10,288 nt of DNA from a bacterium. GTDB lineage: Bacteria; Bacteroidota; Ignavibacteria; UBA10030. The stretch covers positions 1-10,288 of the forward strand of contig JAZDJN010000001.1 in NCBI GenBank assembly GCA_043803945.1, given 5' to 3'. Made by a program: the position numbers and the translations under genes. Position 1 is the stretch's first letter, and every line of letters begins with the position of its first letter. A model generated the notes under the pieces. That model saw only the letters and a list, made by a program, of their open reading frames with translations, was not told where the DNA came from and searched no databases. This document shows, in pieces, positions 1 through 10,288 of the stretch.

Positions 1-120
<120 letters not shown>

Positions 121-143
121 TGGTTGGACTTTTCGTCCAAGCT
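121..143 (-). repeat. 23-nt hairpin repeat, copy 1 (AGCTTGGACGAAAAGTCCAACCA on the - strand); forms the intron's 3' exon
   Basis: Its reverse complement matches 3365-3387 and 10119-10141 at 22/23 nt each. Internal palindrome TTGGAC-N5-GTCCAA. Confidence 0.9.
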
Positions 144-203
144 TCCAGCGAATTGTAATCACCAGATTCGTGAATGTCAAGTGCCACTCTTGCGAAATTG
201 ATA

Positions 204-232: not shown

Positions 233-293
233 ATAACTGATTCACTCACGTTACGCAAAAACACAAAATAAGACTCTTTGAAAGAAAATCTGG

Positions 294-331
294 CCGCCAA
301 GTGCGCCCCAGACCGCCATGCGGTCTGGCGG
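294..331. repeat. GC-rich palindrome (REP-like) in the tRNA leader
   Basis: Perfect 9-bp stem CCAGACCGC (308-316) / GCGGTCTGG (320-328). Alternative outer pairing CCGCCA (294-299) / TGGCGG (326-331). Confidence 0.55.
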
Positions 332-500
332 GAAGAATTTTATTATTTGATTGTTTTCATAAGAATCTGAACATCTATCACATTTAAATCTTGGTGTTTT
401 GGCGTTCTTGGCTGCAAATCTTTCTCTTTTTCTGATCTTACTCAGTTCCATGCGTAACATAACTAATTCACAGTGCTGAAGTAGCTCAGTGGTAGAGCAG

Positions 501-614
501 TCCCGCAAGCCTGATGCTGCGGTAGCTCAATGGTTGAGCAGTGGTTTCGTAAACCACAGGTTGCCGGTTCAAGTCCGGCCCGCAGCTCAAATAAATCAGA
601 ATCGGCTGGCGGGA
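501..614. mobile_element. 114-nt insert bounded by imperfect inverted repeats and carrying tRNA-Thr(CGT)
   Basis: Left end TCCCGCAAGCCTGAT (501-515) versus the reverse complement of the right end (601-614), TCCCGCCAGCCGAT: one mismatch and one indel. The boundaries coincide with the breaks in the outer tRNA. Mobility is inferred. Confidence 0.55.
516..587 (+). tRNA. tRNA-Thr(CGT), CCA not encoded
   Basis: Complete cloverleaf: acceptor GCTGCGG/CCGCAGC; D-arm GCTC-AATGGTT-GAGC; anticodon stem GTGGT/ACCAC with loop TTCGTAA (CGT at 548-550); T-arm GCCGG-TTCAAGT-CCGGC; discriminator T587. Confidence 0.93.
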
Positions 615-837: not shown

Positions 838-3363
838 ATGAAACTCAACTTTCAATCCCTTCTTCTGATTGCGTACCTTACTTTTGGAACACTTATCGCT
901 CAGGATCGCAAAGGCCAGATCACCGGCCAGGTCATCGATGCGCGGACACAGGAGCCTCTGCCCGGCGTCAATGTTGTCCTGGTCGAAAAAACCAGGATTG
1001 GTGCTGTCACTGATATTCAGGGGAATTTCTCGCTGAAAGAAATTGAAGTGGGGGAATATGCCCTTCGTTTTTCTATCATCGGATATGAATCTGTCATCGT
1101 GACCAACGTTGTAGTCTCTACAGGGCGCAGTGCAAAGGTCAGTATAAAAATGCAAGAGACCACACTCCAGATGGAGGGACAGGAAGTCCGGGCAGATTAT
1201 TTTCAGCGTGCCGGTTCCATGAGCCCGATCAGCACAACCGGACTGGATGCAGCCGAAATACGCCGCTCACCAGGTTCTGTCCAGGATATTCAGCGGATCG
1301 TTCAGAATCTTCCTGGTGTCGGCAACTCAACGGATCAGACAAATGAACTTATCGTCCGCGGCGGTGCACCAAACGAAAACCTGACCGTAATGGACTATCT
1401 CGAAATCCCCTCCACCAACCATTATCCGAATCAATTCAACTCCGGCGGACCGATTAACATGATTAATGCAGATCTCATTCAGGATATTCAGTTTTCAACT
1501 GGTGGGTACCCAGCGAACTATGGAGATAAACTCTCTTCCGTTATGAATGTTGCAGTTCGGGAAGGCGATCGCGATCGACGGATAGCCTCGAACACCAGCA
1601 TGCACTTTGCTGGTGTTGGTGCAGTGCTCGAAGGTGGCATCGCATCAGGCCGAGGTTCATGGATCATTTCAGCGCGACAGAGTTTTCTTGAGGTGTTGGA
1701 TAAACTCGTCGGAGTCAGTTCTCTTGGACTGACCGCAGTCCCCAAGTATTGGGATGCACAGTGGAAGGTGGTCTACGATCTTTCGCCTCAGCATAAATTG
1801 TTGTTCAACGGGCTTCTTGGTGATGACCGGATCCTCATGGTTGGATCTGAGAAAGAACATAATGCAGCAAAGGCCGGCGTACGAGATTCGGTCAATGTGA
1901 ACGATATTGATTTTCACAGCTCACAATACGCTGTTGGAATAACACTGAAAAGCATTCTCGGAACCGTCGGCTATTCCGCTCTCACTCTCTATAGCTGGGG
2001 AAATTTCTGGGATATGGGGATGCGATCTAAATTCTCCTCGCGATCATATGATGCTGAGGGAAACCTTGGATCTGTTCAAACAATTTCAGACCGGACCAGT
2101 TTCTACGAGTATTCCCAGGAACGCTATCTCGGATTGAAATATGAAGCGGTCTATGGAATCACGAAAGCACATAATCTTGCCTTCGGAGCCCAATATCAGA
2201 CTGTGGCTCTGTTTAAAAATGATGTTAAGATCGATCGTGATACTGTTCGTTACAATCTCGATGGGCTCCCGGGATTTGAAATCCCAATGGTCGTGGTGCC
2301 TCCCTGGAATCTTTCCAAATCCATTAGCTTTGCGCGTGACTATAAGCTTGATGCTTATGTAAGCAATACCTGGCAAGTCAGTCCAGTAGTTATAGTCACT
2401 GGAGGGCTTCGCTATGATTATTTCAGTTACTCACGGTGTGCGACATTGAGTCCGCGCTTGAATTGTTCTTATCATCTTTACCCGCCGACCACAAAGTTAA
2501 CAGCCGCTTACGGAGAGTATTATCAAATTCAATCGTTTCCTACATACGGAGATCCACAGGATCTCGAATTTAATCGCTACCTGAAAAACAGTCATGCCCG
2601 GCACCTGGTCTTCGGGATCGAACATATTCTTGCCGAAGGGTTGAAGTTGAGTTTGGAAGGATACCAAAAATCCTACTCCGATCTTCCTGTGCGGCAGGCC
2701 TATATCTATTCCGCGGATCGAACTTTTCGCTCCGATACTGTCCTGAATCTTGGTATTCGTTCGGCGTATGGGATTGAATTCTTCATGCAGCAAAAACAAG
2801 TCACAAACACATACTTTACGCTCAGTTACTCCTGGTCTAAAACTCGGGATAAGGATCCACGAACACCGAAACTTGTTGAGGAGTACCCCTCGGCCTATGA
2901 CTATCCGCACATCTTTACCTTTGTCATCGGTCATCGGGTGAAAGATTTCCGAACCACACTGAACAATCTGCCATTCTACATTAAATATCCATCGTCTATC
3001 CTCCCATTTTCGGATGATATGGAAATCAGTTTGCGCTTCCGATTCCAAAGCGGAAATGTCTATACCCCAAGGGTCTATGTGACTGACGAACAGCACCGCG
3101 TCGGTGGGCGAGCCTGGACTCCGGGATGGTGGAAAGATGGAGTTGCGACAAATTCTGCACGCTACCCCGACTATCACCGGCTCGATATTCAGTGGATAAG
3201 CCGGTACCATCTGGCAGCGTATAATATTGAGGTTGTCTTTGCCATTCAAAACGTTTACAATCGGGCGAATATTTCCATGATGAATTATCGGAGTGATGGA
3301 ACCATTGAGAACGTTTATCAGTTTTCATTTTTCCCGGTGGCTGGTCTCAATGTTGAATTTTAA
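838..3363 (+). CDS. TonB-dependent outer-membrane receptor with N-terminal carboxypeptidase-regulatory-like domain
   Basis: 841-aa ORF with a signal peptide. GQITGQVIDARTQEPLPGVNV is typical of the CarboxypepD_reg-like domain. Plug motifs DIQRIVQNLPGV, LIVRGGAPNEN and GGYPANYGDKLSSV; barrel motifs GLRYDYF and LSPRL; C-terminal Phe (GLNVEF). Substrate unknown. Confidence 0.93.
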   Translation: MKLNFQSLLLIAYLTFGTLIAQDRKGQITGQVIDARTQEPLPGVNVVLVEKTRIGAVTDIQGNFSLKEIEVGEYALRFSIIGYESVIVTNVVVSTGRSAKVSIKMQETTLQMEGQEVRADYFQRAGSMSPISTTGLDAAEIRRSPGSVQDIQRIVQNLPGVGNSTDQTNELIVRGGAPNENLTVMDYLEIPSTNHYPNQFNSGGPINMINADLIQDIQFSTGGYPANYGDKLSSVMNVAVREGDRDRRIASNTSMHFAGVGAVLEGGIASGRGSWIISARQSFLEVLDKLVGVSSLGLTAVPKYWDAQWKVVYDLSPQHKLLFNGLLGDDRILMVGSEKEHNAAKAGVRDSVNVNDIDFHSSQYAVGITLKSILGTVGYSALTLYSWGNFWDMGMRSKFSSRSYDAEGNLGSVQTISDRTSFYEYSQERYLGLKYEAVYGITKAHNLAFGAQYQTVALFKNDVKIDRDTVRYNLDGLPGFEIPMVVVPPWNLSKSISFARDYKLDAYVSNTWQVSPVVIVTGGLRYDYFSYSRCATLSPRLNCSYHLYPPTTKLTAAYGEYYQIQSFPTYGDPQDLEFNRYLKNSHARHLVFGIEHILAEGLKLSLEGYQKSYSDLPVRQAYIYSADRTFRSDTVLNLGIRSAYGIEFFMQQKQVTNTYFTLSYSWSKTRDKDPRTPKLVEEYPSAYDYPHIFTFVIGHRVKDFRTTLNNLPFYIKYPSSILPFSDDMEISLRFRFQSGNVYTPRVYVTDEQHRVGGRAWTPGWWKDGVATNSARYPDYHRLDIQWISRYHLAAYNIEVVFAIQNVYNRANISMMNYRSDGTIENVYQFSFFPVAGLNVEF

Positions 3364-3364
3364 G

Positions 3365-3550
3365 AGCTTGGATGAAAAGTCCAACCACTGCGCCAGCGCG
3401 CACCTGTCCGCCGTCTTTCGTGCATTTTGCGTCCACCATCTTTTTGTCGGATCAGCCTCTGGCTGAGAAGGACACAAAGTATAAAATGAAATTCAATTGA
3501 TTTGAAATTTTATCATTTTTACAGTTCTTCCTTCGTATCCTTTAGTGGTG
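3365..3550 (+). repeat. Composite palindromic element, copy A: 23-nt hairpin, then an inverted-repeat body around an AT-rich spacer, with nested modules in the left arm
   Basis: Hairpin at 3365-3387. Left arm AACCAC|GAAGGACACAAAG is interrupted by 3389-3466. Right arm CTTCGTATCCTTTAGTGG (3531-3548). Homologous to 10119-10273. Confidence 0.8.
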
Positions 3551-3581
3551 AAATTATTTCCTGTACTTTTCAATCGGGTCA

Positions 3582-3687
3582 CTAGCCCGAAGGCGTCCCC
3601 GCCTGCTCTAAAGAATTCATAATGGTGGGCAGGTCGCCGAGGGAAATAACGAAAATATTGTGCTCGGCGGGGACGCCTTCGCACTAG
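3582..3687. repeat. REP/REPIN-like long inverted repeat with an internal hairpin insert
   Basis: Perfect 16-bp inverted repeat CGAAGGCGTCCCCGCC (3588-3603) / GGCGGGGACGCCTTCG (3666-3681), flanked by CTAG at 3582 and 3684. Internal CCTGC...GCAGG hairpin at 3602-3633. Confidence 0.75.
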
Positions 3688-3785: not shown

Positions 3786-4311
3786 ATGCAACCATCCCTT
3801 TTTGATCTTATCATTGTCGGAGCGGGCCCCTCAGGCCTCGCTTGCGCTATTGAAGCTAAAAAAGCAGGCCTTTCCTGTCTGGTGCTCGATCAGGGTTCCG
3901 TGGTCGACGCAATCCGTAGATTCCCTTTCAATATGACGTTCTTTTCTACCGCTGGGCAACTAGAGGTTGGCAATATTCCTTTCCTCTGTAAAAGAAATCC
4001 ACCCGCACTCAATTATTATCGAGGGCGTGGAAGAGCGTGAATTGTTGAACGATGCCCTCTTCCCAATGATCGGCTACCAGCCGGATCATTCATTATTGGC
4101 AGGTCTCCATGTAGAGATCGACCCCGAGACGTTGATACCAGCTCACGACTCAAAGACAATGGAGACGAATGTGCCAGGATGTTTTCTTGCAGGTTCTATT
4201 GCGGCTGGCAAGTTTAACAATAAAATATTTATTGAGAACGGCAGGCTTCATGAAAAAGAGATCGTGAACCGAATACGTTCTCGATCGCAATCTCCCTCGT
4301 CATTGCATTGA
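3786..4311 (+). pseudogene. ypdA: YpdA-family (putative bacillithiol disulfide reductase, thioredoxin-reductase-like flavoprotein) pseudogene with internal deletion and frameshift
   Basis: First frame: FAD-binding DLIIVGAGPSGLACAIEAKKAG and FPFNMTFFST...LEVGNIPF. Second frame: IGYQPD, TMETNVPGCFLAG and FIENGRLH, the YpdA C-terminus. The two parts total only about 175 codons, and no central NADPH-binding domain is visible. Confidence 0.85.
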
Positions 4312-10084: not shown

Positions 10085-10118
10085 TCCCTTCCAATATGTT
10101 CTCCCTCCTTCCTCTAGA

Positions 10119-10273
10119 AACTTGGACGAAAAGTCCAACCACAAAGGACACTAAGGATGCGAAGAATAAAAAGAAAAAGGAGTAATGGAAATTTAAATTA
10201 ATTCAACAGTTTTTCCTTTGTGTCCTTGGTGAACTTTTCAGCCAGAGGCTGATGCGCCTTTGGTGCAGTGGTT
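10119..10273 (+). repeat. Composite palindromic element, copy B
   Basis: Hairpin at 10119-10141. Left arm AACCACAAAGGACACTAAGGATGCGAAG (10137-10164). Right arm CTTTGTGTCCTTGGTGAACTTT|GTGGTT is interrupted by a 30-nt double hairpin (10238-10267). Confidence 0.85.
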
Positions 10274-10288
10274 TGATTATGTTCTTAA

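Follow-up and report, generated by a model that had tools for sequence, protein, structure and literature searches.

Our finding that the window (the whole 10,288-nt stretch analysed, which is the entire contig C1 of a 5.54 Mb source genome in 118 contigs) begins with the 3′ end of a group II intron that lies within a short multicopy repeat suggests, with high confidence, that a mobile intron of 1934 nt retrohomes into a MITE-like element and that its sites are selected by RNA-DNA base pairing. The sequences show directly how the intron is built, where exactly the filled and empty sites lie, how guides covary with targets and how the copies are distributed; from this we infer that the pairings drive integration into DNA. 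The mechanism would then be ordinary retrohoming, and it is the choice of target that is unusual and, apparently, lineage-wide. The original prediction, made from the letters of the window alone, was that an intron that does not look like class IIC uses a multicopy intergenic hairpin element for homing, and this interpretation was largely right in spirit. By itself, the window is an ordinary case, a mobile intron within a non-coding repeat.

Anatomy of the intron and its boundaries

The start of the window holds the following features.

Window 1..120, plus strand: 3′ end of a group II intron (Rfam RF00029, 54.2 bits; 100% identity with the intron ends on contigs C21, C99 and C66)
Window 9–11, plus strand: stop codon TAA after the last codons of the RT/maturase (reading frame of the intron-encoded protein)
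Window ~43–75 (~33–34 nt), plus strand: intron domain V, with an AGC triad at 44–46 (Rfam match and sequence reading)
Window ~77–120, plus strand: intron domain VI, with a bulged A at 114, 7 nt from the end, and the 3′ end ...CUCUAC (sequence reading)
Window 121..148, plus strand: 3′ exon, the right terminal inverted repeat of a MITE-like element, TGGTTGGACTTTTCGTCCAAGCTTCCAG (repeat family alignment)
Window 121, plus strand: IBS3 (T121), with intron A268 as its partner (EBS3 covariation across relatives)

The match to Rfam Intron_gpII (RF00029, domains V and VI) covers positions 41–120, its 54.2 bits comparing with a gathering score of 40. Contig C1 begins within the intron because the intron is multicopy, and the 5′ exon of the window's own copy lies outside the assembled sequence; the same 120-nt 3′ end terminates contig C99, is internal in C21 and, on C66, is 18 nt away from the contig end. 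All four 3′ ends (C1, C99, C66 and C21) are the same through ...CUCUAC and differ beyond, and intron-free copies of the element are continuous across the boundary (...CCTTTG^TGGTTGG..., where ^ marks the point of insertion here and below), which confirms that the intron ends at 120 and the exon starts at 121. Both ends of the contig lie in repeats, position 1 being in the intron and position 10288 in a MITE-like copy, within its left terminal repeat. An intron in a non-coding repeat accounts for the contig breaking at both ends, and the length of the contig therefore reflects the collapse of repeats in the assembly.

A complete copy of the intron, 1934 nt from GUACG to CUCUAC, is present on contig C21 (60774..58841, minus strand), two further 5′ ends stand at the start of contigs C9 and C5, and the assembled pieces are 98–100% identical. 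Divergence among the three 5′ flanks and among the four 3′ flanks sets in precisely at the intron boundaries, where empty elements are uninterrupted. The GUGYG-like 5′ end that was expected upstream of the window was found as GUACG, with A at position 3, and relatives carry either GUGCG or GUACG. The junctions are as follows.

Contig C9, 5′ junction: ...CATCCTTAGTGTCCTTTG^GUACG
Contig C5, 5′ junction: ...ACTTTGTGTTCTTTG^GUACG
Contig C21, 5′ junction: ...TTTTGCGTCCTTAG^GUACG
Contigs C1 and C99, 3′ junction: CUCUAC^TGGTTGGAC...
Contig C21, 3′ junction: CUCUAC^TGTCCTTCGTGGTTGGA...
Contig C66, 3′ junction: CUCUAC^TGGCAGC..., the 3′ exon being unique sequence

An ORF in domain IV yields a 460-aa RT/maturase (390 bits against TIGR04416, cutoff 300) comprising only the domains RVT_1 (5e-39) and GIIM (6e-08); profile search detected no endonuclease domain in it, and the protein stops 26 aa past GIIM. 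Intron-encoded proteins (IEPs) of this endonuclease-less kind are common to classes A, D, E and F besides C. When the protein is compared with those of solved structure in the PDB (IIA, IIB and IIC), the IIC proteins 7uim (4.6e-57) and 6ar1 (5.5e-54) rank ahead of the IIB protein TeI4h (3.4e-47) and of LtrA (7.4e-40), the margin between IIC and IIB being small. The best plasmid matches reach at most 48.6% identity and come from mixed hosts.

Domain I matches Rfam RF02005 (group-II-D1D4-6) with 62.6 bits against a threshold of 49, one lower-scoring match from the same clan being present besides. In a consensus fold of 36 variants, compensatory changes are seen in 56 of 75 pairs. The fold places EBS1 in a terminal loop and EBS3 in an internal loop beside the stem GCCUCG/CGGGGU, and it pairs nt 6–20 with ~296–309, again with compensatory changes, as the normal closing helix of domain I; a reading of nt 1–19 as a conserved 5′ hairpin was dropped for this reason. 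As modelled, the layout of the ribozyme looks IIB-like rather than IIC.

The expectation that the intron would not look like IIC is borne out accordingly by four of the six IIC features checked. Introns of class IIC have a CGC triad in domain V and an IBS1 of 3–4 bp. Here the triad at window 44–46 is AGC, EBS1 spans 5–6 bp and is accompanied by a short EBS2-like pairing in place of a very short IBS1 with no EBS2, and the best Rfam model of domain I is D1D4-6 and not D1D4-3, under which PDB 4FAW, presumably the O. iheyensis IIC intron, is listed. The 5′ exons consist of tandem 9-nt units in which we found, by reading, no G+C-rich stem followed by a T run as in an upstream terminator or attC stem-loop. 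The lack of an endonuclease domain (460 aa, RVT_1 and GIIM only) is shared with IIC.

The repeat element, its filled sites and its empty sites

An alignment of 12 near-identical members shows the element bounded on both sides by CTAG and ending in the terminal inverted repeats CTAGARAYYTGGMCGAAAAGT. Its left arm is composed of inverted units of the CACAAAG type and leads into an AT-rich centre; the right arm consists of direct 9-nt units, ...TTCTTCG CATCCTTAG TGTCCTTTG, followed by the right terminal repeat TGGTTGGACTTTTCGTCCAAGTTTCTAG, and some copies carry additional small hairpin modules. CTAG is invariant at both ends and could therefore be either a target-site duplication or a part of the element. 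Right ends with up to 4 mismatches number at least 47 in the genome, and the terminal-repeat core has 250 matches, with a core-to-core spacing of 111–174 nt for 22 pairs. Having terminal inverted repeats, a small size, no ORF and many dispersed copies, the repeat can be called MITE-like on the grounds of its sequence. No transposase for it was found between seven core pairs spaced 1.1–3 kb apart, where ordinary genes reside, and none of 12 Y1_Tnp matches is a Y1 transposase flanked by the repeat (REP/REPIN-RAYT test): within 900 nt, one has a single terminal-repeat core, one has two inverted-unit motifs and ten have neither. An autonomous parent of the element was likewise sought among the 1.1–3 kb core pairs and the Y1_Tnp loci, and none was found there.

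Within the element, the insertion junction reads CCTT(T/A)G^TG. The intron occupies a unit boundary: the right end of the element is 28 nt away in C1 and C99, and in C21, on which a complete element with the intron inside is assembled, it is 37 nt away, the intron being one unit further in. Two details of the original prediction have to be revised in this light: insertion exactly at the terminus of the repeat is not observed, since the element extends 28 nt more (window 121–148, the right terminal inverted repeat), and the TGG taken for the end of a long inverted-repeat arm belongs to G^TGGTT, which falls inside the right arm. On the other hand, a 5′ exon containing the repeat body had been foreseen, and the 5′ exons do carry it, ending in CTTTG (C9, C5) or CTTAG (C21). 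A multicopy intergenic element as homing site agrees with the junctions as well, since every one of the three assembled 5′ junctions is found in the element and so are three 3′ junctions out of four.

The recurrence of window 121–143 on the minus strand at 3365–3387 and 10119–10141 was reproduced with one mismatch each, and 0/200 shuffles gave any match. A resemblance of the 3′ exon to the repeat by chance or through an error of assembly is, in our view, of negligible probability: the break of the contig at the intron is the sole point in its favour, and against it stand the absence of matches to the 23-mer in 200 shuffles, the 47 members of the family and the filled copy assembled internally on C21.

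More weight attaches to the idea that the intron entered one element a single time and that this element then transposed with the intron inside. The 98–100% identity of the intron pieces would fit such passenger spread, as would the location of 3/3 assembled 5′ junctions and 3/4 3′ junctions in the element. However, the 5′ exons of C9, C5 and C21 represent three different element subfamilies, and the intron occupies two insertion positions, that in C21 lying one unit upstream of that in C1 and C99; this argues for independent insertions, and against the movement of one intron-bearing element. Moreover, neither the core pairs nor the Y1_Tnp loci revealed a transposase for the element. We thus regard passenger spread as highly improbable and favour retrohoming into the element. 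The near-identical copies at different sites lend indirect support to the predicted self-splicing and retromobility of the intron, and the copies are presumably active at present.

The window holds two intron-free copies of the element and one site that would suit the intron.

Window 10114..10288, minus strand: intron-free element copy, cut by the contig end in its left terminal repeat (repeat alignment)
Window 10142/10141, minus strand: predicted empty homing site, with IBS2-like GTG at 10151–10149, IBS1 CCTTTG at 10147–10142 and IBS3 T at 10141
Window 3358..3585, minus strand: element without intron, belonging to a second subfamily and directly adjoining the stop codon of the TonB-dependent receptor gene, with the right terminal repeat at 3365–3387

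The site at 10142/10141 reads GTGTCCTTTG^TGG, and the 60 nt before it match the 5′ exon at the filled C9 site without a difference; judged from its sequence, it is a good empty site. Window 3468–3579, in the second-subfamily element, shares 81% identity with the 5′ exon at the filled C5 site. At 3388/3387 (minus strand), the sequence GCGCAG^TGG pairs with EBS1 at only 2/5 positions, and this candidate was rejected; hence, of the two empty target sites that had been claimed for the window, the one at 10142/10141 fits the guides and stands, and the other falls. Among the 47 right ends in the genome, 2 are occupied at the insertion position seen in the window, and EBS1-compatible units are present at 30 of the 45 others (CCTTTG at 14, CCTTCG at 11, TCTTCG at 2, TCTTTG at 2 and ACTTTG at 1).

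Several further features of the window were recorded.

Window 242–462: second dispersed repeat, to which other parts of the genome show up to 12 overlapping matches; terminal-repeat-like core at 290, CTGGCCGCCAAGT
Window 308–328: perfect hairpin CCAGACCGC-CAT-GCGGTCTGG, inside the second dispersed repeat
Window 474–515: stretch resembling the 5′ part of a tRNA, GCTGAAGTAGCTCAGTGGTAGAGCAG..., abutting tRNA-Thr(CGU) at 516–588; ARAGORN calls tRNA-Thr(CGU) only
Window 3582–3687: separate multicopy palindromic element flanked by CTAG, GCGAAGGCGTCCCCGCC ... GGCGGGGACGCCTTCGGGC, a CTAG being common to it and the adjoining MITE-like copy
Window 3967–4311: ORF of 114 aa whose match is limited to the C-terminal quarter of Pyr_redox_3 (profile 230–305 of 305), probably a gene fragment beside repeats

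Guide pairings and their covariation

A protein scan of species-representative genomes yielded at least 601 matched stretches and at least 536 confirmed relatives, the best 80 of which were used and gave 79 loci; joined with two copies from genome searches, these provided 58 5′ junctions and 42 distinct ribozyme variants. The pairing tests rest on 41 variants, which are mutually non-independent and drawn from the best 80 of at least 536 relatives. Hosts among these best 80 include Ignavibacteriota, Bacteroidota and, going by the labels of MAGs, about a dozen further phyla. Every one of the located introns starts with GU(G/A)CNCCA..., and those whose end is covered terminate in ...CUCUA(C/U). 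In public sequencing runs, matching contigs were all internal to the intron, none spanning an exon junction. For locus L009, one RNA-seq library labelled as groundwater metatranscriptome contained two contigs, one of 470 nt with 6 differences and one of 252 nt with none, which correspond to L009 positions 1119–1588 and 1731–1982 in the intron interior, DNA carry-over being possible.

When the complementarity of each 5-nt window of domain I with exon bases −5 to −1 was scored, nt 199–203 came out on top with a mean of 4.78/5 (next best 3.95). All five positions are paired in 33 of 41 variants, compared with a mean of 7.4 and a maximum of 15 after shuffling the exons 2000 times; a sixth pair, with exon −6, is formed in 20/41 variants, and the 41 variants display 21 different EBS1 5-mers. 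Two EBS1 candidates chosen by eye, UAAGGAC (~249) and CGAAGGG (402), were superseded by this covariation scan (nt 199–204). EBS3 at nt 268 covaries with the first base of the 3′ exon (T-A 20, C-G 11, T.G 2, other 2; Watson-Crick in 31/35), in agreement with the predicted pairing of EBS3 with T121, for which A268 is the partner. An EBS2 was not found in scans at fixed offset; a test with variable offset then gave a short pairing, in which the internal loop UUAC(A/G)C (nt 172–177) tracks an exon G(T/C)G located ~8–10 nt upstream of the site. The combinations are CAC/GTG at 26 sites, CGC/GCG at 7, CGC/GTG at 4 and CAC/GCG at 1, and the Watson-Crick run averages 3.91 against 3.03 in shuffled sets, a value reached by 0/1000 shuffles.

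EBS1 of the source genome is CGAAGA (nt 199–204). It pairs with TCTTTG in C5 with one G.U, with CCTTTG in C9 over 5 bp and with CCTTAG in C21 with an A.G mismatch at −2. This last mismatch, which involves EBS1 of the C21 copy at 60576–60571, is one of purine with purine, and locus L084 is similar, with G.G; guide or target may have drifted after insertion in these two cases. In a genome of the same family, an intron of 78% identity with EBS1 CUAAG is present three times in identical form; each copy follows (G/A)CTTAG, and these three sites have no tandem unit.

We propose that EBS1 (nt 199–204, CGAAGA) would pair with the 9-nt unit ...(C/T)CTT(T/C/A)G, that the EBS2-like ACGC (nt 174–177) would pair with G(T/C)G at the unit boundary before it, and that EBS3 A268 would pair with the first exon base, T. 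The repeat contains tandem copies of the unit, so that each element would offer more than one site, and many elements would amount to many neutral intergenic sites for the intron. Priming would presumably come from the replication fork, by analogy with other endonuclease-less introns, for which it is described in the consulted part of a review.

It might be argued instead that targeting is directed by structure in the manner of IIC, the DNA hairpin of the palindromic element being recognised and the short pairings remaining secondary. The protein without an endonuclease domain, whose closest solved counterparts are IIC RTs, is in line with such targeting, and the inspected targets are indeed palindrome arms in the source genome and in several relatives. 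Furthermore, pairing-compatible candidate sites far exceed those used: sites fitting all three pairings number 725 in the genome, and 32 (4.4%) of them are in masked arms of the element, so that pairing alone fails to explain the location of the intron in the repeat. It must be supplemented by selection that removes insertions in genes, or by an extra determinant such as DNA structure. Yet EBS1 is 5–6 bp long and covaries, an EBS2-like pairing is present, domain V carries AGC, and domain I is of type D1D4-6 and not D1D4-3. The site is, in addition, at the base of the palindrome in the source genome and at its tip in loci L042 and L073, and the three sites in the closest relative genome have no tandem unit. 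Recognition of the hairpin itself receives no support from sites that lie at palindrome base or tip, and base pairing accounts for recognition. Structure-directed targeting appears improbable to us, and site selection by base pairing is preferred.

Target pattern across the lineage and relation to known systems

The context of insertion was surveyed at 57 distinct sites whose upstream flank was 30 nt or longer; one Saprospiraceae genome contributes 13 of them. The exon has G at −1 in 56/57, T at −4 in 50/57 and G at +2 in 44/50, and a near copy of the IBS1 5-mer is located 7–10 nt upstream at 42 of the 57 sites, the rough chance expectation being 6. At least one site in tandem-unit context is found for 31 of 41 variants. 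Flanks that were inspected are often palindromes with inverted and then direct units (e.g., L067, L070, L076, L077 and L080); in the Prolixibacteraceae loci L042 and L073, the order of the units is reversed and the intron is at the tip of the palindrome, not at its base. Occurrences of the unit pattern number 81 on a Saprospiraceae chromosome of 7 Mb, where the reversed control gives 0; they often form inverted pairs at short distance.

Two related introns are arranged in tandem at locus L060 (OW818689.1, ~2970–2995), with 19 nt between them (TTTTAATTCGTGTAATTCG), and are therefore in adjacent repeat units. The upstream flank of L077, from a MAG labelled Planctomycetota, contains a hairpin module, CCTGCCTGCCGGCA(A)GGCAGG, nearly as in elements of the source genome, for example on C26 and C111; this likeness hints at a repeat class common to, or transferred between, distant genomes.

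It is tempting to speculate that the whole intron lineage is specialised on dispersed arrays of 9–10-nt units, ...(A/C)TYYG^TG, palindromic where inspected, with EBS1 tracking the unit of the host. Judged from these flanks, we hold this to be a real possibility rather than the expected outcome. If true, it would add a fourth target habit of bacterial group II introns to those named in a 2015 review, which, in the part consulted, are homing sites in genes, terminators and attC sites; the literature searched contained no description of such a habit. Bacterial group II introns persist only where targets are harmless and renewable. A guide of 6 nt retuned to the repeat unit of each host would then be a clear natural case of co-evolution with a target, the repeat class would span phyla, and the many natural pairs of guide and target would lend themselves to work on the choice of DNA sites by endonuclease-less introns. 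The survey also brings to attention a family of palindromic tandem-unit repeats that recurs across phyla and for which no link to a transposase was found.

As far as the sources consulted describe them, IIC introns, whose insertions follow intrinsic terminators or occupy integron attC sites, share with the present one an RT/maturase without an endonuclease domain, a compact size of ~1.9 kb, an EBS3-IBS3 pair and intergenic, structure-rich multicopy targets. The present intron differs from them in its AGC triad, its covarying EBS1 of 5–6 bp, its EBS2-like pairing, its D1D4-6 type of domain I and the lack of an upstream terminator or attC site. The target of RmInt1 from Sinorhizobium meliloti (class D, IIB3) is ISRm2011-2. 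According to the portions of the literature consulted, RmInt1 resembles our intron in having an endonuclease-less IEP, in being present in many copies and in homing to a site within a different mobile element; its target, however, is a transposase-bearing IS recognised through conventional EBS1 and EBS2, whereas here it is a non-coding MITE-like repeat of 9-nt units.

Comparable to the insertions described here is a group II intron of Pseudomonas putida KT2440, likewise a bacterial intron at extragenic palindromic repeats, for which the consulted part of the report (PMC1525189) gives 2/9 copies at REP sequences. That is a minority association in one genome, whereas here 3/3 5′ junctions are in the repeat and 31/41 variants have a comparable tandem-unit context. 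Finally, Waldern et al. (2020; PMC7306698) describe, in the part of the article consulted, that introns of non-C classes colocalise with mobile elements and so avoid essential genes. An intron that does not look like IIC and resides in another element would conform to this strategy of 'hiding in mobile elements'. Their survey scored protein-coding neighbours (COG categories), and the word 'repeat' does not appear in the main text as consulted, so that non-coding repeats, such as the element that would serve as target here, lay outside its assessment.
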